52,797 nt of DNA. Origin: a virus (Duplodnaviria > Caudoviricetes). Positions 489 through 35,762 of the stretch are shown piece after piece; within the stretch, counting starts at the first letter, position 1, and each line of letters starts with the position of its first letter. The position numbers were made by a program, and so were the translations under genes. The DNA lies in the IMG/VR virus record IMGVR_UViG_3300023179_000145, positions 1 through 52,797 of that record; one strand, written 5' to 3'. The notes under the pieces were generated by a model. It ran no database searches, had not been told where the DNA came from, and saw only the letters and a program-made list of their open reading frames with translations.

Positions 489-1580
489 ATGTATAAAATT
501 AACATTAATTCTGTTCACTGGTCTAGATATATTCGTTTCATTGAAACTCGTTCTAATAGAGTTATTCCCTCCGATACTGTAGTAGAAATTCATCATATTA
601 TTCCTAGATGTGCGGGAGGGAATGATACTACAGATAATTTGATCAAGCTCACTGTGAGAGAACACTTTGTTGCTCATTGGATGCTTACTAGGGTTGGCCT
701 CGACGAGGTTTGGTATAAACTTCGTTTTGCATTTGGTTTCATGAGTGTTTCTAGTAAATCTAATTCTTACAGAAAACTTCTCACATCTAGGCAATTTGAA
801 AAATCTAAAAAGATTAGGAAAGAAACTATTAAACAATGGAACGACATTAACCCATCCACAATCAAGGGAACTTCTTGGTATGCTGATGAGGAGGGCACTT
901 TGTACAGATGTCACTCATCTTCCCCTAAAATAACAGAATTTAATTTAACCGCAGTATCACCCGGAAAAGGGAAAAAATGGTATACAGATGGGACTAATTT
1001 TTTCATGCTAACTGAATTTGACCCAAAAATTATATCATTAAAATTATATCCTGGTTCACCGAGTCTAGGTAAAAAAAAGAAATATTCACCCGAGTCTGCC
1101 AAAAGACTGTCATCGGATAGAGCAGGAAGATTATGGTTCAATGATGGCACAAGATCATATAAATTAAAACCGGAAGATCCTATAATATCAGAATTAGAGT
1201 TAGTTTTTGGTAGAATAATATCATCAACGGGGTTAGAACGTATTAGAAAAGGTGCCGCTTGGGAGAGAACATCAGAACATAATTTAAATAATTCATCTCG
1301 GCAAAAATCAAAACTACGATACAACGACGGAGTTAATAATTTTACATTATTGCCAGATGATCCGTTGATTTCCCAGTTATCGCTCACTAGGGGAGTGATA
1401 CTTACTGAAGAGGGAAAAATTTCTCTTTCCTCTTCTTCTAAAGTCAAGGATCTTTCGTACATAATTGGCAAAAAATGGTTTAATGACGGCATAAAAAATT
1501 ATAGACTTTTAGAAAAAGAGGGCATGAATCTAGGACTAACTATTGGAAAGTTACATAAGATTAAATCAAAAGATTCTTAA
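489..1580 (+). CDS. HNH homing endonuclease inserted antisense within nrdA
   Basis: EIHHIIPRCAGG...NLIKLTVREHFVAHWML HNH motif, followed by about five W-x-(N/T)-DG repeats. Confidence 0.92.
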   Translation: MYKININSVHWSRYIRFIETRSNRVIPSDTVVEIHHIIPRCAGGNDTTDNLIKLTVREHFVAHWMLTRVGLDEVWYKLRFAFGFMSVSSKSNSYRKLLTSRQFEKSKKIRKETIKQWNDINPSTIKGTSWYADEEGTLYRCHSSSPKITEFNLTAVSPGKGKKWYTDGTNFFMLTEFDPKIISLKLYPGSPSLGKKKKYSPESAKRLSSDRAGRLWFNDGTRSYKLKPEDPIISELELVFGRIISSTGLERIRKGAAWERTSEHNLNNSSRQKSKLRYNDGVNNFTLLPDDPLISQLSLTRGVILTEEGKISLSSSSKVKDLSYIIGKKWFNDGIKNYRLLEKEGMNLGLTIGKLHKIKSKDS

Positions 1581-13112: not shown

Positions 13113-13664
13113 TTAGGTTGTTTTTATCTTTCCTAACAACTGCTTGAGTTTGGTACTTTGCACATCTGCAGAAATTTTTGGAGCAAACGGATCATGCCCA
13201 TCCTTGGGCTTTGCTCGTTCCCACTGTCCAGGTGTTACCACTGGTTCTGCCGGAGTAACCAAGGCTTTTGCCTTGATAGAATCCATCAAGCTGGGTTTAC
13301 GGAATGAGTTTTCACTGTCTTCACCACCGGCATCTGTGATACGCATGGTATCAATATCATATTCTAAATCAATCTTTTGTCCTACACCTGTTGAACTACG
13401 CGATTTCATACATTGAATTTGATACTTTCCGCGCTCTTTCATTTGCCTGCTGGTAAAGATACCAAACACATTGTCTGCTGTGTTGATCTTCGAGATACCA
13501 CCCGAAATATGACTGTGATCAAACTCTACTTCTTCGACGGCGCTGTTATGCGTTAAAATATCATTGGCATAAAATAAACGATTGCCGTTTACATTTATAT
13601 CAATTGTATCTTCTTCACCAATATATTTGATTGATATGATTTCATCTTCAACGTAATTATTCAT
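13113..13664 (-). CDS. Split-intein C-fragment (40 aa, 13545-13664) fused to the gp41/DnaB helicase C-terminal part
   Basis: ...TIDINVNGNRLFYANDILTHN|SAVEEVEFDHSHISGGISKINTAD...MKSR. Confidence 0.95.
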   Translation of the reverse strand: MNNYVEDEIISIKYIGEEDTIDINVNGNRLFYANDILTHNSAVEEVEFDHSHISGGISKINTADNVFGIFTSRQMKERGKYQIQCMKSRSSTGVGQKIDLEYDIDTMRITDAGGEDSENSFRKPSLMDSIKAKALVTPAEPVVTPGQWERAKPKDGHDPFAPKISADVQSTKLKQLLGKIKTT

Positions 13665-25112: not shown

Positions 25113-26084
25113 TTATGTTTTATTTATGATTTCGTGTGCATTGGTCAATTCATCTGCTCTCACCCATCCAGTATCAGTTAGAAACTTATGATTTCCGGTG
25201 ACTAGTATTTTATTCCCATTGTCAAACTCTAGCTCATACATTTTTTCACTGGAGGATTTAGCTAAATTCACATGCTGTTTAACCACAATATCAATCTTAA
25301 ATTCTTTTGTAGTTTCAGAATAGTTGATAACTTTGTCACCTGATTTAATATCTCTAATAGGCACATATCCAGTTGGAGTTAACACCCTGCTATCTGCCGA
25401 AAAACATTCATCCACAATCACACAAACAACATCTGTCAGGAATTCCTGTATGGTACAATCACCCACACCATTCTTGGTATTCTTCATGAGATTGTTCAGG
25501 CTTTGCCACGTGCATATGGTATGACTACGACCATATTCTTTTCTATCTCCGAAGTACACGCCTACATCCAACTCCATGTTGATATAATCTTTTTCTGTTT
25601 GTGTGACCAAGCTCTTGTTGGGCACAATCACAATACTGCGACCATACTTACTAACTGCGTCACTGAGTGCTGCTGTCATGATGGTGTTGTGGTGAATCAC
25701 CCCATCCATATCATAATAAAGGTGTGGCGAATCTATTCCTATATCATAAAATGTGGTATCAGGTATTTCGTAAATGGCATCTATAGTAACGTCTCCGTTG
25801 ATGGTTTCAATTTTTTCACCCACACATAAATCAAAAGCAAAAACGTCCCTGCCATTCTGTCGCAGAATATGCTTAGTGGCACACTTAATTTCTATTCCCG
25901 TAGACGTAACCAATTTAATTCCAGAAAGATTTTCTTTCTTGATTATATGGTTAATCCGAGACGATCCTGTAGGGGTATCTATATAACAACCCAAATCTGC
26001 TATATCGATCTCTTGATTGTGCTGTAGTTTTATATTTTTATACTCCTCTACTGCCGTTGCCAATTGTCCAATACTAATCTTCAT
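25113..26084 (-). CDS. uvsW: UvsW piece 2: IntC1 (133 aa, 25686-26084), 93-aa extein (25407-25685), IntN2 (97 aa, 25113-25406)
   Basis: ...FYDIGIDSPHLYYDMDGVIHHN|TIMTAAL...VIVPNKSLVTQ...VIVDE|CFSADS...VTGNHKFLT. Confidence 0.94.
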   Translation of the reverse strand: MKISIGQLATAVEEYKNIKLQHNQEIDIADLGCYIDTPTGSSRINHIIKKENLSGIKLVTSTGIEIKCATKHILRQNGRDVFAFDLCVGEKIETINGDVTIDAIYEIPDTTFYDIGIDSPHLYYDMDGVIHHNTIMTAALSDAVSKYGRSIVIVPNKSLVTQTEKDYINMELDVGVYFGDRKEYGRSHTICTWQSLNNLMKNTKNGVGDCTIQEFLTDVVCVIVDECFSADSRVLTPTGYVPIRDIKSGDKVINYSETTKEFKIDIVVKQHVNLAKSSSEKMYELEFDNGNKILVTGNHKFLTDTGWVRADELTNAHEIINKT

Positions 26085-27093
26085 TTAAAAACTTTCTACA
26101 TTTGTTAATGATTTCATCAGGGTTTTCTCTGTAATCCTTTTCTGAGATACGTAATATCGTAAATCCGGCTGCTTCCAAATCCCTCATTTTTCTTTGATCC
26201 TGTTCCCATATTTCAGCAACCGGTCTATTTCGAAGTATATCGGTTGCTTTATACAAAGCAGGATTGGCATGCCAATAATCGCCATCAAATTCAATTATTT
26301 TTCGAGTTTCAGAATCGTAATAATCAATGCGATATGTTTTTGATTTACCACGCACAGTAGTTTCATCGTCTCCGTATCTACCTTTACCGCCAACAGCATT
26401 GAATAATTCAGTTGAGACTTTGCTAATACCCAAAGTTAGCTTCGACATCTTGTTGAGCCATTTTTCTATCCTGGTGTTATACTTCAACGTACCGTCAACT
26501 TCTCCGTACTTCTCTATATACCAACTTAGCCCATTTGTAACTTGCATCTCTGCTACTTTCTGACACGCATTGGCATCTGAATATCCTTTTTTAATCCAAT
26601 ATTCTTTAGTTCTAACAGAAAATCCACGAGCACCTTTTTTTGAAGCCGGGGACTTTGCTGATCGAGTTTGTTGAATTGCTGATACCTTTTTGTTTGCCTC
26701 TTCTTTGGTAAAGCCAGCTGCTAACCAAAATTGCCGATTATTTGTAAATTTTCTTGTTTTGTGCTTTGAAAATGTTGTTAAAATATGATTGGCTTCATCT
26801 TGAGAAAATAATGTAGTTAACTTCTGCACCGTAGCATAGTTCTTACTGTCGGCAGAACATCCACAAGTGTTCACAATAAACTCGTTTTTACGAAACCCGA
26901 CGGGCAATGTCAAATGACATTTTAAGCAGTGTCTAGACTGAACTTCAAACTTGTTAAGTCCACTGTATGGCATATAATATACCTTATCTCCGTTGAATTG
27001 TATCAAATCCCATATGTCTAAATCAAGATTTTTTCTTGAGATCATCGAAGACCACATTTTTCTTTGGTATTTTTTAATAAATTCTTGTAACAT
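26074..27093 (-). CDS. Putative homing endonuclease (Vsr/DUF559-like) inside the first uvsW split intein
   Basis: IDY...IIEFDGDYWHANP...LRISE; YWIKKGY and YIEKYGEVDG repeats. Confidence 0.85.
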   Translation of the reverse strand: MLQEFIKKYQRKMWSSMISRKNLDLDIWDLIQFNGDKVYYMPYSGLNKFEVQSRHCLKCHLTLPVGFRKNEFIVNTCGCSADSKNYATVQKLTTLFSQDEANHILTTFSKHKTRKFTNNRQFWLAAGFTKEEANKKVSAIQQTRSAKSPASKKGARGFSVRTKEYWIKKGYSDANACQKVAEMQVTNGLSWYIEKYGEVDGTLKYNTRIEKWLNKMSKLTLGISKVSTELFNAVGGKGRYGDDETTVRGKSKTYRIDYYDSETRKIIEFDGDYWHANPALYKATDILRNRPVAEIWEQDQRKMRDLEAAGFTILRISEKDYRENPDEIINKCRKFLNED

Positions 27094-28030: not shown

Positions 28031-28114
28031 TTACATCACAATCATCAGGACTATAAACGCTGCCAACCATGGGTAGCCGCAACACAATGCTGCAATAGCA
28101 GCTACCCAGGCCAT
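28031..28114 (-). CDS. Small membrane peptide (27 aa)
   Basis: MAWVAAIAALCCGYPWLAAFIVLMIVM; starts 1 nt after the stranded ATPase stop codon. Confidence 0.5.
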   Translation of the reverse strand: MAWVAAIAALCCGYPWLAAFIVLMIVM

Positions 28115-28115
28115 G

Positions 28116-28141
28116 TTAGGCTGCTTTCATGCAAGTGGTTT
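28116..28141 (-). pseudogene. Stranded original 3' end of the AAA ATPase gene
   Basis: AA ACC ACT TGC ATG AAA GCA GCC TAA (TTCMKAA*) parallels the current end ACG ACA TGT ATG CGT GCC AGG GGC TAA (TTCMRARG*). Confidence 0.85.
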
Positions 28142-28163: not shown

Positions 28164-28829
28164 ATGAAATTCCTGGACAACAAATATACAAAAACTTATT
28201 TTAACATTATTGCTTCTGCTAACACAAGAGTTATCGAAGGGTATGTTGAAAAACATCATATCATTCCAAAAAGTTTTGGGGGGACGAACCATGCTAATAA
28301 TCTTGTCAAACTTACTGCAAGGGAACATTTTATTTGTCATTTGTTACTAGTCAGAATGACCCAAGGGAGAAATCAAACAAAGATGCTACGGGCAATTCAA
28401 GCATTTGGTAAGTTGAAAAAAACAAACAGATCTCTCACAGCCCGACAGTACCAATTAGCACGAACTCTTACTGCTGATCTTCCTGCATGGAACAAAGGAA
28501 AAACTCTTGCCGACTATACTCCTGAACAAAAAGAGGCACTCCGTAAATCTGGTATTACCAAGAGAGGCAGAACACAAACTGCCGAAGCTAACGCTAAAAG
28601 ATCTGCAACGCAATCCGGAAGACCTGCTCATAACAAAGGTAAACCTATGCCTTTCAAAGGAAGAGTCAGTCCCACCAAAGGTATCACACACCCCAAGAAA
28701 CCATGTCCTCATTGCAGTAAAGAAGTTGCCGCAAATATTATGGCCAAGTATCATGGGGATAGGTGTCAATTTAGCCCCTGGCACGCATACATGTCGTCTC
28801 TGCCAGGCGTTTCCAGTTGCCTTCGCTGA
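28164..28829 (+). CDS. HNH homing endonuclease with NUMOD3-like motifs, antisense at the 3' end of the ATPase
   Basis: EKHHIIPKSFGG...NLVKLTAREHFICHLLL, AWNKG, CPHC. TAAATA 5 nt upstream of ATG 28164. Confidence 0.92.
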   Translation: MKFLDNKYTKTYFNIIASANTRVIEGYVEKHHIIPKSFGGTNHANNLVKLTAREHFICHLLLVRMTQGRNQTKMLRAIQAFGKLKKTNRSLTARQYQLARTLTADLPAWNKGKTLADYTPEQKEALRKSGITKRGRTQTAEANAKRSATQSGRPAHNKGKPMPFKGRVSPTKGITHPKKPCPHCSKEVAANIMAKYHGDRCQFSPWHAYMSSLPGVSSCLR

Positions 28830-29811
28830 GTTTACGCAGATCAGCAATCTTCAATGCCATACGCAGGCTCATCTCACGCAGACGATTTTGATTCTTGTCC
28901 ATAAACTCAATGATTGCATCTTGAGTTTCGGGCTCAAAGTCGTAGTCTGCAAACAGTACACCGTCCTTGGCAATCTGTTTGATACGCAAGATCTTGTCAC
29001 GCATGGTGTCAAGAGTCAAGTCCAAGTAATGGCAACGACTTTGCAGCGCATCCAAGTGATCACGCAGTTTCTGCGACTTCATTGCGTCAAACTTCAAGTT
29101 GGTAATAAAAATTACCGAGCCTTTGAAGTCAAACTGATCTGGAATGCCTTCGCGGCGCAGAGTAGAACTCTCGCTCAACCAAGAAATCTTACGCTTCTTG
29201 CCTGAGTCCAATGCACCCTTCAGCAAGTTCAATGAAACATCGTCTAGTAGAATGCTGTCGCAGTCATCGAACACCAGCACACAGTTTTCGTCGCTGTATT
29301 TGTAAAGAGTCTGATACAGGCCAATTGGAGTTGCACTGCCTTTGACAACTTCTGCACGAAGACGCTTGCCTGCAATCTTGTCAAACAGTGTGGCTTTTTG
29401 GATTTCTTGCTCAACACCAAAGCTCTTGCCCACACCCGGGGGACCTGACACAATCATTGCGCGGATATCGCCGCCGATACAGGCCTTGGACATTTCTGTA
29501 AGGATTTCAAAACGCTCACGGATACGAGTCATTGCTTCTTCTTCAGACTCTGCCAGATTTGCAGTCTTGGCGCTCAGTGTAGGAGCCAGAGGATTCAGTT
29601 CTACCGTATCGCCGTTCACCATTTCATAGTCAGTGATAGCATCGACCAGCACACGGATGTTTTCCGGAAGGTTCTTGCCCAAACTGCCATTGTTCGCAAT
29701 GGTGACATAGCCGCCTTTGGGCCCGGTCTGAAAGCCTGACACCAGCTTGAAGCATTGATTTTTGATAGTTTTGCCGCGATACACGCCGCGAATGATACGA
29801 ATTGCGCTCAT
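28771..29811 (-). CDS. P-loop (AAA-type) ATPase
   Basis: GPPGVGKS, VFDDCD, IFITN, ALQSR. Confidence 0.88.
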   Translation of the reverse strand: MSAIRIIRGVYRGKTIKNQCFKLVSGFQTGPKGGYVTIANNGSLGKNLPENIRVLVDAITDYEMVNGDTVELNPLAPTLSAKTANLAESEEEAMTRIRERFEILTEMSKACIGGDIRAMIVSGPPGVGKSFGVEQEIQKATLFDKIAGKRLRAEVVKGSATPIGLYQTLYKYSDENCVLVFDDCDSILLDDVSLNLLKGALDSGKKRKISWLSESSTLRREGIPDQFDFKGSVIFITNLKFDAMKSQKLRDHLDALQSRCHYLDLTLDTMRDKILRIKQIAKDGVLFADYDFEPETQDAIIEFMDKNQNRLREMSLRMALKIADLRKLSEGNWKRLAETTCMRARG

Positions 29812-30834: not shown

Positions 30835-31620
30835 TTATACCGGTGGATTATTCCAATATTCTGGATATTGTTTCAGTATACGTTGTACTGCTTCGGGATA
30901 AATGATGTTTATAGTGTGTGTGGTACATTTATGATTAATTGCAGATATAGTGTCCAGCTGTTTAAATGCTGACAATATTTGTTCAGGGTCTCTGTGTTGA
31001 CTTTCTATGCAACTTACTACTTTATTACGTATAAGATCATCGGTGCCCATCCAGGTCCAATGCCACCCCACTGGAGTTTTTAGCCCCACGCAATGACTAC
31101 GGTCTTTGCGTTTGATGTTTTTTCCTTTGTACAGTTCGTGCGGGGTATCAAACATCCTACGACGTGCTACTACACTTCCTTGCCATCCACGTTCAGCACG
31201 TTGATCAAACTTATACATAAACATTTCAAATCCACAGCTGACTGGACAATCATGATGATTCATCAATGCAATGATATCTGCCCAGCATTCAGGATTGATT
31301 ATCTCGTCGAGATCGCCGTGAATCACAATGTCTTCTGTTGAATATTCTGCCAGCGCAGGTGCAATAGCCTGACGCATCATTGTTTCGCACACAAGGTTAA
31401 TCTGATGTTCTTGTAATTCTAATGTGACAACTTGAATCCTATCTCCATATAGTTTTTGATAACGATCAAGATTGTTTAACAGATTGTAAGGTTTTGCTAT
31501 GCCACTGAAAGTTCTGCTGGCCTCTAGTACCACCCATCGATCTACATAATGGTCGGTGATTGCTAGATGTATATCCAGCATGTCAAACTCGTTGTTGAAT
31601 AACAGTGTATCAATTACCAT
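30835..31620 (-). CDS. Glycosyltransferase family 17-like
   Basis: FNNEFDML, VDRWVVLEA..TFSG..KP, GDLDEI, GWH. Confidence 0.8.
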   Translation of the reverse strand: MVIDTLLFNNEFDMLDIHLAITDHYVDRWVVLEASRTFSGIAKPYNLLNNLDRYQKLYGDRIQVVTLELQEHQINLVCETMMRQAIAPALAEYSTEDIVIHGDLDEIINPECWADIIALMNHHDCPVSCGFEMFMYKFDQRAERGWQGSVVARRRMFDTPHELYKGKNIKRKDRSHCVGLKTPVGWHWTWMGTDDLIRNKVVSCIESQHRDPEQILSAFKQLDTISAINHKCTTHTINIIYPEAVQRILKQYPEYWNNPPV

Positions 31621-31622
31621 GG

Positions 31623-32258
31623 TTAAAATTTATAAATGATCTGGTAAGCATCATACAAAGGTTTGATTCCTTTTGCGTCTAAGTAGTCTGCTATATAATG
31701 GCCTTTTCCAGTACGAGAGTTGGAGTCTAAAAATCTGCTGTTGTCATCTATTACTACCAGAGCACCTGGTTTAAGATGTGGTTCAATTATTTGAAATTCC
31801 ATTAAATGATGCATAGCACTATCGTGATCATTATGCCATTTTACATCGTAACTGTCAAGGTAAAAAAGATCAACGTTGTTCAAATCTAATTGTGTAGCCA
31901 AATATAATACACTATCCATACATGTAGATTCAAAACTGTCAGAGGTGATTGCGTCGCGAGCAGCAGCCACAGCTTCTGGATCTATATCTACACTACGCAC
32001 ACTACCACCATGATGATCCACAAATTCTGTAAACAATCTAGCACTTTGCCCATCTTTCCAATTACCTGGATTTCTCAGTGTGCCAGTTTCGATGATATGA
32101 TATTCAGACTGATCAAGACTTTCAAGATATGAAAACACAAGATTAAATCCTTCAGCACGTTGATATAGTCCTTCTATCAACCCTCGTTTGGCACCACTCA
32201 CTTGGGGAGTTAACAAGTGATAATAGTTATTGCGATAATGTTCGATCCAGGTAGTCAT
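31623..32258 (-). CDS. Class I SAM-dependent methyltransferase
   Basis: IIETG, SVDID, YLDS, LKPGALVVIDD. Confidence 0.8.
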   Translation of the reverse strand: MTTWIEHYRNNYYHLLTPQVSGAKRGLIEGLYQRAEGFNLVFSYLESLDQSEYHIIETGTLRNPGNWKDGQSARLFTEFVDHHGGSVRSVDIDPEAVAAARDAITSDSFESTCMDSVLYLATQLDLNNVDLFYLDSYDVKWHNDHDSAMHHLMEFQIIEPHLKPGALVVIDDNSRFLDSNSRTGKGHYIADYLDAKGIKPLYDAYQIIYKF

Positions 32259-32265
32259 GTGTTAT

Positions 32266-32847
32266 TTAAATTGAATTACTGTGAGCAAATGGTTTTGTTA
32301 TTATCCAGCAACGCCCTGATCTGCTGACTTTGATATCTTGCGGGCCAAAGAAATCCCACACTGCTTGTTGCACACCCGGATATCCTTTGGTATAATCATC
32401 ACCAGCAAATCTAGATCCAGGTCTCAATTTTGGCCACCAAGCCGCAAGATCACTAGCAACGGCTTCATAACTATGCCCAGCATCTACATAACAAAAATCT
32501 ATAGATTGGTCTTTGAAATTATCAGCAGCCTGCCAACTGATCTCACTCAACATTGTTATCTGTTCCATCACTGGAGTTAGATTTTGGCAGAAAATGTTTT
32601 TGAGGTCTTGTACAACATCAACATCATACGCAATCGACTCTTCCCCTTTCCATGTATCTACACAATAGAATGGGCCTAGCTTGTTACGGTTGATCAGTTC
32701 TACTACACAATATGCAGCACTTCGGCCAGTCCAGGATCCTAATTCGACCCACGTGCCACCTGGCGGAAATTGATCTAATACTATATCAAGCATTATAGTA
32801 TTTTTGTGGCTCATAAATCCTTTGATGTTTTGATAGAAGTGATCCAT
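32266..32847 (-). CDS. Methyltransferase (Methyltransf_24-like)
   Basis: VELGSWTGRS, VDTW, YVDAGHSY, LRPG...GDDY. Confidence 0.85.
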   Translation of the reverse strand: MDHFYQNIKGFMSHKNTIMLDIVLDQFPPGGTWVELGSWTGRSAAYCVVELINRNKLGPFYCVDTWKGEESIAYDVDVVQDLKNIFCQNLTPVMEQITMLSEISWQAADNFKDQSIDFCYVDAGHSYEAVASDLAAWWPKLRPGSRFAGDDYTKGYPGVQQAVWDFFGPQDIKVSRSGRCWIITKPFAHSNSI

Positions 32848-32884
32848 TTTTTATTTACCGTTATATACGCCGATAAATATTTCT

Positions 32885-32935
32885 ATGAAAATTGTAATTG
32901 TAACTGGGGGATTTGACCCCAGATTGTATAAATGA
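32885..32935 (+). pseudogene. Stranded original 5' end of the cytidylyltransferase gene
   Basis: MKIVIVTGGFDP-RLYK* behind a TAAATA promoter (32874-32879); parallels MKIVLCTGGFDP at 33641. Confidence 0.88.
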
Positions 32936-32951
32936 ACATACAGGAGGAAGT

Positions 32952-33644
32952 ATGTTTATAGATAACAAATACTCAAAATGCTACTACAATCTCATTGAGC
33001 ATAGAAAAAATAATCCGTTTGACGGATATGTTGAGCAGCATCACATTGTCCCAAAAAGTCTCGGTGGCAGCAATAAAAAAGAAAATATTGTCGCCTTAAC
33101 TGCAAGAGAACATTTTATCTGCCACAGGCTCTTGGTTAAAATGACCAGCGGAAGAAACAAGATGAAGATGTCTTATGCTGTCAGATGTTTGATCAATCGA
33201 GAAAATGCATACCAACAGCGTTACAAAATCAGTTCTCGAACCTATGCTGCAATAATCTTAACTACAAGAAACAGTATTTCCAAATACCAAACTGGAGAAA
33301 ATAATCCATACTATGGAAAAATCCACTCTGAGGAAGTTAGAGCTAAGATGAGAGCCAAACGGGCATTACAAATTATGCCAACTCGAAAAGGAAAAGTGTA
33401 TTCGGAGGAATCGTTAAAGCTATGGCGAGAAGATAATAAAAAACAATTTGAAGATCCAGCTCAAATTGAGATGCGTAAAACACATACGTTGGAGCAAATG
33501 AAAGATCCTAGCCGCCGTTTTGCGGCTGGCAATGGCAAACGCGGAAAAAAATGGTATTATTGCCCTGTAACAAAAAAATGCTCTACATTTTTTCCAGACA
33601 CAGTTCCGCCAGGATATATAGAAGGAAGGATTATTAAAAAATGA
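32952..33644 (+). CDS. HNH homing endonuclease with NUMOD3
   Basis: EQHHIVPKSLGG...NIVALTAREHFICHRLL, GENNPYYGKIHSEE; AGGAGG RBS. Confidence 0.92.
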   Translation: MFIDNKYSKCYYNLIEHRKNNPFDGYVEQHHIVPKSLGGSNKKENIVALTAREHFICHRLLVKMTSGRNKMKMSYAVRCLINRENAYQQRYKISSRTYAAIILTTRNSISKYQTGENNPYYGKIHSEEVRAKMRAKRALQIMPTRKGKVYSEESLKLWREDNKKQFEDPAQIEMRKTHTLEQMKDPSRRFAAGNGKRGKKWYYCPVTKKCSTFFPDTVPPGYIEGRIIKK

Positions 33645-34399
33645 AAATTGTACTCTGCACCGGGGGATTCGATCCATGCCACTCTGGACATATCTCCTAT
33701 CTAGCAGCAGCCCGCCAACTTGGTGATCGGCTGGTAGTGGGAGTAAATTCTGACGCATGGTTAAGCCGTAAAAAAGGTCGACCGTTTATGCCTGCAGTTG
33801 AGCGTGTGGCAGTGATAGAAAATCTACGCATGGTAGATTGCTGTATCCTGTTCAATGACGATGATGGTTCAGGAATTGAAGCCATTCGTGCTGTACAAAG
33901 CATGTATCCCAATGCAGAAATAATCTTTGCCAATGGTGGTGATCGCACAAAAGAAAACATACCCGAAATGGTGTTTGACGATGTGGAGTTTGTGTTTGGG
34001 GTCGGCGGATCAAACAAGGCCAACAGCTCAAGCTGGATTCTTGAAGAATGGAAGAAACCCAAGACTGAACGCACCTGGGGATATTATCGTGTATTACATG
34101 AAGTTGGCTCACATGTAAAACTCAAAGAACTCACCGTGATGCCTGGGCAACGACTCAGTATGCAACGTCATGAAAAACGTGCTGAGTTTTGGTTTGTGGC
34201 CGAAGGTGAAGCCACAGTGTACACCGTGGATCCACACAGTACCGACCGGGAGTTGCTGGCCAGCCCTGCACGGCATCAACACACTTGGATTCGACTAGGA
34301 GAATGGCATCAGCTATGCAACGAAACTGATCAAATACTTAAACTGATCGAAATTCAGTATGGTGAAGATTGTGTAGAAGAAGACATTGAACGCAAATGA
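33641..34399 (+). CDS. Cytidylyltransferase-like (HxGH) domain fused to a mannose-6-P isomerase type II cupin
   Basis: TGGFDPCHSGH, VVGVNSD, FANGGDR; RTWGYY...LSMQRH..RAEFW...IEIQYG. Confidence 0.9.
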   Translation: MKIVLCTGGFDPCHSGHISYLAAARQLGDRLVVGVNSDAWLSRKKGRPFMPAVERVAVIENLRMVDCCILFNDDDGSGIEAIRAVQSMYPNAEIIFANGGDRTKENIPEMVFDDVEFVFGVGGSNKANSSSWILEEWKKPKTERTWGYYRVLHEVGSHVKLKELTVMPGQRLSMQRHEKRAEFWFVAEGEATVYTVDPHSTDRELLASPARHQHTWIRLGEWHQLCNETDQILKLIEIQYGEDCVEEDIERK

Positions 34400-35088
34400 T
34401 GGACATCATACCAGTGTTTGTAGGGTACGACCCTAGAGAAGCAATAGCATTTCATGTATGCACCAACAGCATAATCAGAAATGCCAGCAGACCTGTTAGT
34501 ATTATTCCATTAGCATTGAATTTGTTCAAAGACTACAAGGAAACACACACCGATGGTAGTAATCAATTTATCTACTCAAGATTCTTAGTACCGCATTTGA
34601 TGAGATATAATGGTCATGCTATCTTTATAGATGGTGACATGATTGTGCGCGGTGACATTGCTGAGTTATGGGATTTACGAAATGCCTGGCAAGATGTGCA
34701 AGTGGTCAAGCACGATTATAAAACACGCATGGCCGAAAAGTATCTCGGCAGCAAAAACGAAAACTATCCACGCAAGAACTGGAGCAGTGTGATGTTGTGG
34801 AACTGTAACAGTTATCCTAATCGCAAGCTCACTCCTGAATTCATTGAAAAATCCACAGGTGCGGAGTTACATAGATTTACCTGGCTCGACGATGAGCGCA
34901 TAGGGGAGTTACCTGCTGAATGGAACTGGTTAGATATAGAATACGATTACAATCCTTTGGCAAAACTTGTTCACTATACATTAGGCACACCTTGTTTTCA
35001 CGAGTTTGCTGCCCAAGGTGACTTCTCAAGCGAATGGCATAAAGAACGCATCTTTACAGAATACTGTCAACAAAGAATGGTTGTCTGA
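34396..35088 (+). CDS. Glycosyltransferase (GT8-like)
   Basis: VGYDPRE, FIYSRFLVP, FIDGD, YPRKNWSS, HYTLGTP. Confidence 0.85.
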   Translation: MMDIIPVFVGYDPREAIAFHVCTNSIIRNASRPVSIIPLALNLFKDYKETHTDGSNQFIYSRFLVPHLMRYNGHAIFIDGDMIVRGDIAELWDLRNAWQDVQVVKHDYKTRMAEKYLGSKNENYPRKNWSSVMLWNCNSYPNRKLTPEFIEKSTGAELHRFTWLDDERIGELPAEWNWLDIEYDYNPLAKLVHYTLGTPCFHEFAAQGDFSSEWHKERIFTEYCQQRMVV

Positions 35089-35762
35089 TGATAGGAAGTA
35101 ACAACTTCAACATAGATTGTTTACATTCGGCACAGATCATCAACTGCAAGAACAAAAGTAAACGTGTGCAGCGTAGTAATCATTTAACTCATGCACTACG
35201 CACTATCAACATAACTGGGCACGTGATGGAATTTGGAGTATATCAGGGCAACACACTGAAAATTATTTCTGATTATTTTTCTAATCAAACTGTGTGGGGG
35301 TTTGATAGTTTTGAAGGATTACCCGAACCTTGGTTTTTGAAATCAAAAGTTGGTTCCCGGCGCTCGCAGCATCCTGTGGGGAAATTTGCTCTAGGCCAAG
35401 AGGAACTACAGGTTGTTGTGAATCAGTTTGCAAAAAGAAAAGTAAAACTTGTGCCTGGATGGTTTAATCAGACTATAGGGCCTTGGATGAATGATAATCC
35501 TGGAGTAGTGTCATTTTTACATATAGATTGTGATCTATACAGCAGCACACTAGATATATTAAATTTGTTAAATGATCGCATTGTTCCTGGCTTTGTGATA
35601 GTGTTTGATGAGATGTATCCTTGGAATGATGTTGAACAATACGATCTTTGGGAGCAAGGCAAATTCCGAGCATTAGGCGAATGGATCAGCAATCATCAAC
35701 GTACTTTTCGTACGTTATATCGCAGCGAACATCAACAATGTAGCATTGAGGTAATGTCATGA
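35088..35762 (+). CDS. TylF/MycF-like methyltransferase
   Basis: EFGVYQG, GFDSFEGLPE, GWF, HIDCDLYSS, IVFDE. Confidence 0.87.
   Translation: MIGSNNFNIDCLHSAQIINCKNKSKRVQRSNHLTHALRTINITGHVMEFGVYQGNTLKIISDYFSNQTVWGFDSFEGLPEPWFLKSKVGSRRSQHPVGKFALGQEELQVVVNQFAKRKVKLVPGWFNQTIGPWMNDNPGVVSFLHIDCDLYSSTLDILNLLNDRIVPGFVIVFDEMYPWNDVEQYDLWEQGKFRALGEWISNHQRTFRTLYRSEHQQCSIEVMS

Follow-up and report, generated by a model that had tools for sequence, protein, structure and literature searches.

The window, meaning the whole stretch of DNA analyzed here, comprises 52,797 nucleotides (nt) of the IMG/VR virus record IMGVR_UViG_3300023179_000145 (Duplodnaviria; Caudoviricetes). At the locus in question, a gene for a homing endonuclease of the HNH type stands between a complete gene for a cytidylyltransferase-like enzyme and a short open reading frame (ORF), referred to below as the stub, that echoes the beginning of the enzyme gene (Table 1). 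The enzyme matches the Pfam models CTP_transf_like and MannoseP_isomer, scores 54.6 bits against NCBIfam cyt_tran_rel (cutoff 27.7), and resembles cytidylyltransferases in PDB over residues 1–110. The stub runs from ATG AAA ATT GTA through GGG GGA TTT GAC CCC to AGA TTG TAT AAA TGA, in the same frame as the enzyme gene and 756 nt from it. Its stop codon is separated by 16 nt from the ATG of the HNH gene, which is preceded by the sequence AGGAGG, and the TGA of the HNH gene (33642–33644) overlaps the ATG of the enzyme gene in the tetranucleotide ATGA. This layout, overlap included, had been described in a first-pass annotation made from the sequence alone; the feature is where that annotation placed it, although its left bound, position 32874, falls in the upstream spacer.

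The first 36 nt of the stub and of the enzyme gene agree at 27 positions, with 10 of the 12 encoded residues alike, and a scan of both strands of the whole window turned up no other pair this close, the thresholds being 25 of 36 matching bases or 7 of 12 matching residues. Codons 7, 10, 11 and 12 (T, F, D and P) are synonymously changed between the two copies and both glycine codons are identical, which bears out the earlier count of four synonymous differences among the six TGGFDP codons; codons 5–6 encode IV in the stub and LC in the replacement copy. The ATG of the stub lies 37 nt from a divergently oriented methyltransferase gene. At the HNH-less loci L001–L006 (loci are cited by their numbers in our collection), the methyltransferase homologue starts 40 nt from the ATG of the enzyme gene itself. 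The stub ATG is thus in the native position, and the stub is the original start of the enzyme gene in its original place. We conclude that an HNH cassette very probably inserted within the first codons of the enzyme gene and brought its own copy of them, leaving the enzyme gene whole and the old start behind as the stub.

The HNH protein carries a NUMOD3 match (Pfam, 38.5 bits; cutoff 20.4), a DNA-binding module typical of phage homing endonucleases, and matches the PHROGs family phrog_655, annotated as homing endonuclease, with an E-value of 1.4e-40. It is 29–34% identical, over 85–97% of the query, to genes annotated as mobE in RB3, T-even phages and Sinorhizobium phage phiN3. The HH...N...H motif is kept in all 17 aligned HNH sequences and is intact in the window. 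The nuclease motif, NUMOD3 and the MobE kinship, combined with a presence/absence polymorphism that has a recombination boundary (see below), indicate that the protein is a free-standing Mob-like HNH enzyme, with site-specific nicking or cleavage as its probable activity. A DNA search of named phages returned a single 99-nt match, in a homing endonuclease gene of a Rhizobium phage, and protein searches of the same phages returned distant relatives only; no cultured phage in that collection therefore has this arrangement.

Table 1. Features of the locus and a second Mob-like gene in the window
Feature	Position	Strand	Remarks
Divergent methyltransferase gene	32266–32847	-	Pfam Methyltransf_24, E-value 9.6e-20; marks the native start position of the enzyme gene
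Promoter-like motif	32872–32879	+	GATAAATA; ends 5 nt before the stub ATG
Stub ORF	32885–32935	+	17 codons including stop; MKIVIVTGGFDPRLYK then TGA
Stub, native enzyme codons 1–12	32885–32920	+	MKIVIVTGGFDP; stub and upstream spacer resemble the alleles of L017/L026/L052
Cassette left end	32921–32951	+	RLYK and stop (4 codons + stop) close the stub; TATAAATG at 32927–32934; AGGAGG at 32942–32947
MobE-like HNH-NUMOD3 homing endonuclease gene	32952–33644	+	230 amino acids
Replacement codons 1–12	33641–33676	+	MKIVLCTGGFDP; ATG overlaps the HNH stop codon as ATGA, likewise in L081–L090
Cytidylyltransferase-like + cupin (mannose-6-phosphate isomerase C-terminal) gene	33641–34399	+	252 amino acids, complete
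Right-hand co-conversion tract	33641–33850	+	Foreign to the window background
Changed patch, codons 5–13	33655–33679	+	Identical to the patch of the HNH-less locus L008
Second Mob-like HNH gene	28164–28829	+	Runs over the 3' end of an ATPase-like gene encoded on the minus strand (28771–29811)

The arrangement recurs widely. A scan with the HNH protein returned 27 loci, and in 17 of the 18 close ones (L081–L098) the HNH gene lies directly upstream of an enzyme gene; the remaining one, L096, stops at a contig end. Four targeted queries together gave 181 loci, and removing duplicates left 102 distinct 5' regions, which comprise 68 HNH-less, in-frame regions whose upstream sequence extends for at least 800 nt, 7 HNH-less regions with short upstream sequence, 20 HNH-bearing regions, 4 that are HNH-less and frameshifted, and 3 with HNH remnants. 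At 19 of the 20 distinct HNH-bearing loci a remnant of the enzyme N-terminus stands right upstream of the HNH ATG and ends near GAYCCN, the proline codon of TGGFDP, followed by a conserved left end that consists of ATAAATA (within one mismatch) and a Shine-Dalgarno site. The exception is L098, where the HNH gene is truncated at its 5' end. Both the association of the HNH gene with stubs and the position of the break within the most conserved motif, as proposed in the first-pass annotation, hold across this sample: the junction always follows the proline codon.

The stubs are host-specific: their sequence and length vary between loci (MLNKVVLVTGGFDP and MKSIKKVVLVTGGFDS are two examples), as would be expected of different host alleles. 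The stub ATG has been lost in L081–L089 and L094/L095, where the enzyme gene is intact, as expected of relics. Two classes of cassette can be distinguished by their right ends. In the window and L081–L090 the HNH protein ends in GYIEGRIIKK, and the ATGA overlap is followed by MKIVLCTGG[FY]DP. In a sister class (L091–L094, L097, L098 and L068) the replacement N-terminus runs from ATG to GGN GGN TTT TGA YCC, so that an extra T puts a stop codon after the phenylalanine, and the frame of the enzyme resumes in +1 with DP.HSGH.

Alleles without the HNH gene are common, which provides the comparison with empty sites that the first-pass annotation had suggested. Viral contigs scanned with the enzyme protein gave at least 599 match rows, and among the best 80 loci the HNH match is absent in 79; the other, L068, keeps a C-terminal HNH remnant. 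In 75 of 78 HNH-less relatives the sequence TAAATA stands just before the ATG, its end being 5 nt away in 72 loci and 4 nt away in 3. TAAATA and GATAAATA are reminiscent of the T4 late promoter TATAAATA. The element that had been labeled a promoter is a conserved motif only, and a role as promoter is putative. At this distance of 4–5 nt from the start codon (75 of 78 among L001–L080, and 32872–32879 in the window), TAAATA leaves no room for a Shine-Dalgarno site, a hint of leaderless late transcripts or of another role for the motif. A scan for sigma-70 promoters and terminators found 12 promoter-like sites, compared with 7.5 ± 3.3 in shuffled sequences, and nothing decisive.

The HNH-less relatives also define the usual N-terminus of the enzyme. 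Among the 78, residue 6 is V in 75, C in 2 and L in 1; residue 10 is F in 77 and Y in 1; and residue 13, immediately before HSGH, is L in 55, I in 16, V in 4, M in 2 and C in 1. The Leu-Cys...Cys version carried in the window is therefore unusual, and the cysteine that had been pointed out in place of Leu/Ile/Val before HSGH is indeed rare.

Comparison with these relatives reveals the window as a mosaic. In a sliding BLAST analysis the window background matches L017, L019, L054 and L026 at 76–89%; from the enzyme ATG the best matches become L008 (99%) and L010/L014 (97%), and L019 returns by about position 33926. Within the enzyme gene, nt 1–120 have no mismatches to L008, and nt 120–210 have six. 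The part of the enzyme gene in which the window is most divergent from its 5' relatives is nt ~300–400 (window ~33940–34040), which may be a second hotspot of recombination or variability; the patches that distinguish L126 from L279 and L276 from L287 (see below) fall in the same part. The left edge of the exchanged segment is seen in the pair L129 and L130. These differ by ~10% over the 3 kb upstream, including six differences in the stub, the last of them at the phenylalanine codon; beyond it, beginning with GACCCT, the entire HNH gene and 700 nt of the enzyme gene show at most one difference per 100 bases. The switch at GACCCT places the left edge at the last two codons of the stub.

HNH-less L008 carries the changed patch without the cassette. 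It differs from its near-twins L010/L014, to which it is 96% identical overall, at nine positions, all within nt 14–38 of the enzyme gene, with no differences in –60 to +13 or in 39–113, and this patch is base-for-base that of the window. It looks as if left by break repair from a replacement copy, or by loss of the HNH gene through recombination between the N-terminal repeats. Other loci appear to record later stages. The last 8–45 HNH codons persist before Leu-Cys alleles in L167, L149 and L169/L179 as footprints of deleted HNH genes. L097 (2380–3200) contains three tandem copies of the enzyme N-terminus: copy 1 is fused to a first-class HNH tail (…GYIKGRIIKK), copy 2 is a first-class replacement N-terminus reduced to a stub, an intact second-class HNH gene lies between copies 2 and 3, and copy 3 is the working copy. 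This succession of copies with two HNH classes points to serial invasion. In L143, L166 and L175 an in-frame Leu-Cys N-terminus comes after a second-class HNH tail, and the first ~30 bases of this N-terminus are identical to those of the window; parts of the two cassette classes thus occur in mixed combinations.

In order, the cassette comprises the late-promoter-like ATAAATA, a Shine-Dalgarno site and the HNH ORF, and it ends with a new ATG and ~12 codons of the target. We infer cleavage, its exact site, immunity and expression in the following scheme. During co-infection the HNH enzyme would recognize the coding sequence for TGGFDP..HSGH in HNH-less phages and cut or nick it there, and repair would copy the cassette from the co-infecting donor. 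Homology on the right would lie within the enzyme gene, and on the left it would amount to just a few codons before the break. The upstream neighbors vary by phage lineage, being a minus-strand methyltransferase gene in the window and other plus-strand genes elsewhere; left-hand homology would thus be limited to those codons, and each homing event would leave the start of the recipient gene as a new stub. The recipient promoter and codons 1–12 would stay upstream as the 16-codon stub, its stop codon supplied by the left end of the cassette. The rebuilt enzyme gene, now 756 nt away from its native promoter motif, might be transcribed by read-through or from TATAAATG of the cassette, and its translation is probably coupled to termination of the HNH gene at ATGA. 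The changes at codons 5–13 probably protect the cassette-bearing genome from its own endonuclease.

Several observations weigh against this interpretation. The Pfam HNH score, 19.9 bits, is slightly under the cutoff of 21.4. Our locus counts are not population frequencies, as the queries were targeted. No donor with an HNH protein at least 90% identical to that of the window was found among the loci, the nearest being L081 with 80% amino-acid identity. A further point concerns protection: many lineages that lack the HNH gene and keep their native upstream sequence also have the Leu-Cys N-terminus as an ordinary allele. By our reading of the match rows, about 22 of the 57 contigs with a Leu-Cys start have a full HNH gene upstream, and the HNH-less lineages among them have enzymes 49–75% identical to that of the window. 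As this start is also natural in HNH-less lineages, the cassette carries a foreign allele and not a purpose-made recoding. The replacement N-terminus had been described in the first-pass annotation as recoded; a changed copy is indeed carried, but designed recoding overstates it, and a foreign and probably resistant allele is the better description. Some of the HNH-less Leu-Cys alleles may themselves be products of hit-and-run events.

The same cassette might accordingly move while its N-terminal changes are neutral baggage from the donor, with immunity due to altered bases that precede the ATG, a protein factor or some other cause. The Leu-Cys alleles of the HNH-less lineages favor such an account, as does human ethanolamine-phosphate cytidylyltransferase, in which C and Y occupy the equivalent positions, placing the changes within the natural range of the family. 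We nevertheless regard neutral baggage as unlikely. The nine changed bases of L008 are confined to the patch of an otherwise L010-like allele. The region of the phenylalanine codon is altered in both classes: TTT is replaced by TAC or TTC in the first class and by TTTT in the sister class. Finally, the cassette restores the complete motif downstream of the HNH gene, hence an unchanged copy would itself be a target.

Another possibility is that the HNH gene resides in a self-splicing group I intron, in which case the stub would be exon 1 and splicing would join it to the gene that follows. Introns often encode HNH enzymes (PMC2988022), and the shared frame of stub and enzyme gene would suit splicing. 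The arrangement makes an intron very improbable: there is no intron family among the Rfam matches up to an E-value of 10 in 31500–35500, the 16 nt between the stub and the HNH gene and the overlap at its other end leave too little space for the core of a ribozyme, the downstream gene begins with its own complete N-terminus, and loci with ATG-less stubs keep an intact enzyme gene. Splicing, which the first-pass annotation had set against its own proposal, is thus neither needed nor supported, given the lack of a group I match in Rfam, the short gap and the separate downstream start. An intein was also considered and rejected, as a stop codon and a change of frame separate the stub from the HNH gene and the Pfam scan contains no Hint family. 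That the metagenome assembly is chimeric, or that a single illegitimate duplication occurred without wider meaning, is hardly credible, for although the window is an assembled virus record of an estimated 15% completeness, many samples together provide 19 other distinct loci with this architecture.

The sister class with the extra T was explored further in a pattern scan, which returned 27 viral and 23 metagenome contigs (L108–L134 and L273–L295). Two of the metagenome matches, L275 and L277, proved to be in frame and were discarded as false positives; the other 48 of the 50 are real. In 17 distinct N-terminal contexts the zero-frame codon before Gly-Gly is always threonine (ACA 9, ACT 4, ACC 2, ACG 2). 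Of 34 distinct downstream coding sequences, 25 are full length (236–250 codons), 3 are truncated (L112, L280 and L124) and 6 run off their contigs. An HNH gene, full, as a remnant or cut by the contig end, lies directly upstream in 19 of the 27 viral contigs and is absent in 8; by eye, the sequence before the ATG in L113/L114 and L120/L124 looks like the last bases of an HNH gene. Throughout their length the HNH proteins found beside these genes are homologous to those of the first class, with 14 residues fewer and a different C-terminal region of ~45 residues. The ratio of nonsynonymous to synonymous substitution rates in the frameshifted enzyme genes, taken as a measure of purifying selection since the shift, could draw on three close pairs only. 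L126/L279 and L276/L287 are otherwise identical, with their differences (18 and 4 mismatches) in one ~100-nt patch of the enzyme gene, and L129/L130 have two differing sites in the enzyme gene and near-identity around the frameshift. The ratio is uninformative because these close pairs reflect recombination and not gradual divergence.

We suggest, at slightly less than even confidence, that the extra T serves self-protection and that the enzyme of the sister class would be made only by programmed +1 frameshifting at UUU_UGA, with recoding as a form of endonuclease immunity carried in the cassette. The extra base would disrupt the endonuclease target in the DNA itself, in parallel with the 50-nt bypass of T4. 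Alternatively, the frameshifted enzyme genes may have been freshly killed by a selfish element. A programmed +1 frameshift of this kind is known from prfB. Insertions or deletions accompanied by compensatory frameshifting have been termed 'savior' indels in the portion of Atkins et al. 2016 available in PMC5009743. Should the frameshift be decoded, the sister class would be the second natural case, after the bypass of T4 mobA and gene 60, in which translational recoding confers immunity to a homing endonuclease, and the idea could be tested beyond the single T4 example; the class found in the window would then represent a recoding-free answer to the same problem. Enzyme genes that appear frameshifted beside such HNH genes may thus not be pseudogenes.

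The second Mob-like HNH gene of the window (Table 1) is 54–57% identical to the first over the nuclease domain (57% over residues 2–80). The first-pass annotation had proposed, from the similar N-termini of the two proteins, a family specialized in replacing gene termini, of which the enzyme locus would be the mirror case. The N-termini are indeed alike, but the likeness says little about specialization because this nuclease domain is common to all Mob-like enzymes. The mirror idea itself fits: relatives of the ATPase end in ...AETTCMKSA with the ATG of the next gene close after the stop codon, the ATPase of the window ends in AETTCMRARG, and a relic, TTCMKAA with a stop codon, lies at about 28114–28140 (minus strand) on the far side of the second HNH gene, just before the next gene, which encodes a small membrane protein. 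The four duplicated codons (TTCM) that flank the second HNH gene show three synonymous differences. No close homologues of this HNH protein were found, the best being 31–46% identical and thus too distant for a comparison of its flanks.

The window contains further candidate mobile nuclease genes. An HNH-family paralogue of 363 amino acids (489–1580, plus strand; phrog_655, E-value 9.6e-32) is encoded on the strand opposite to its neighbors and is 33% identical to the HNH protein of the cassette over residues 9–98. A minus-strand gene at 13657–15147 matches PHROGs families annotated as 'homing endonuclease' and 'HNH endonuclease' (E-value 1.2e-98) and is possibly mobile. The same may apply to 26074–27093 (minus strand), whose C-terminus may be a Vsr/DUF559-type endonuclease domain.

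The natural sequences collected here appear to preserve a whole life cycle, from fresh invasion, as in the window, through decaying stubs and loss of the HNH gene that leaves resistant alleles, to re-invasion by the second class. A spare gene start carried by a homing endonuclease would be a third way of residing inside an essential motif without an intron, an intein or a split protein, and the locus offers a simple model in which target choice, co-conversion and immunity could be measured. For genome annotation, short orphan ORFs that echo the start of a nearby gene beside an HNH gene are best regarded as scars and not as genes.

Bonocora et al. are said to have described in 2011 the MobA element of T4, a cassette of mobA and the gene 60 bypass. 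In the available part of a preprint (bioRxiv 10.1101/2022.08.31.505936), the insert of the MobA element encodes a 'HomR' copy of the target segment that was deleted, the host gene is split in two, and the 50-nt bypass protects T4 from MobA. To the extent covered by that text, the present locus resembles T4 MobA in having a Mob-family HNH gene inside a conserved host-gene motif, a diverged target copy in the insert (27 of 36 bases here), ORFs that overlap the endonuclease gene, progressive decay of the endonuclease, and 'hit and run'. The sister class has a candidate translational recoding site in the target; the class of the window is without a recoding element. MobA, according to the same portion, divides a topoisomerase gene so that two polypeptides result, each extended by a tail, and removes 55–75 nt, whereas here the displaced 16-codon stub is dispensable and decaying in relatives, and nothing is deleted at first. 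With the target only 12 codons into the gene, the insert can provide a new ATG and so restore the gene in full.

MobE is the closest characterized family (29–34% identity). In the accessible part of PMC2988022, mobE lies between genes in T4, and in Aeromonas phage Aeh1 it interrupts nrdA, which then yields two working subunits; the gene is free-standing, with overlapping start and stop codons that suggest translational coupling. Unlike the cassette described here, the T4 and Aeh1 mobE genes are not described there with a duplicated terminus, and the words 'duplication' and 'duplicated' do not occur in that review. A literature search that had most subscription journals outside its reach returned neither a phage case of an endonuclease-borne N-terminal replacement nor a frameshift tied to a homing endonuclease.

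In Allomyces, a mobile endonuclease ORF reportedly replaces the C-terminus of atp6. According to the part of PMC3630166 that was available, endonuclease ORFs of fungal mitochondria (Glomus atp6, atp9, cox2 and nad3) replace C-termini and leave the native end as an unexpressed duplicate. As far as that text extends, these ORFs share with the present locus the combination of an endonuclease ORF, a foreign, divergent terminus and a native relic that matches close relatives. The fungal cases concern an organelle, LAGLIDADG or GIY-YIG enzymes and the C-terminus, and are often in frame with the endonuclease ORF, whereas the present element belongs to a phage, encodes an HNH enzyme, replaces an N-terminus and comes with a new start codon and probable translational coupling. 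Principles known from MobA, MobE and the fungal ORFs are combined here at the N-terminus of a phage gene.

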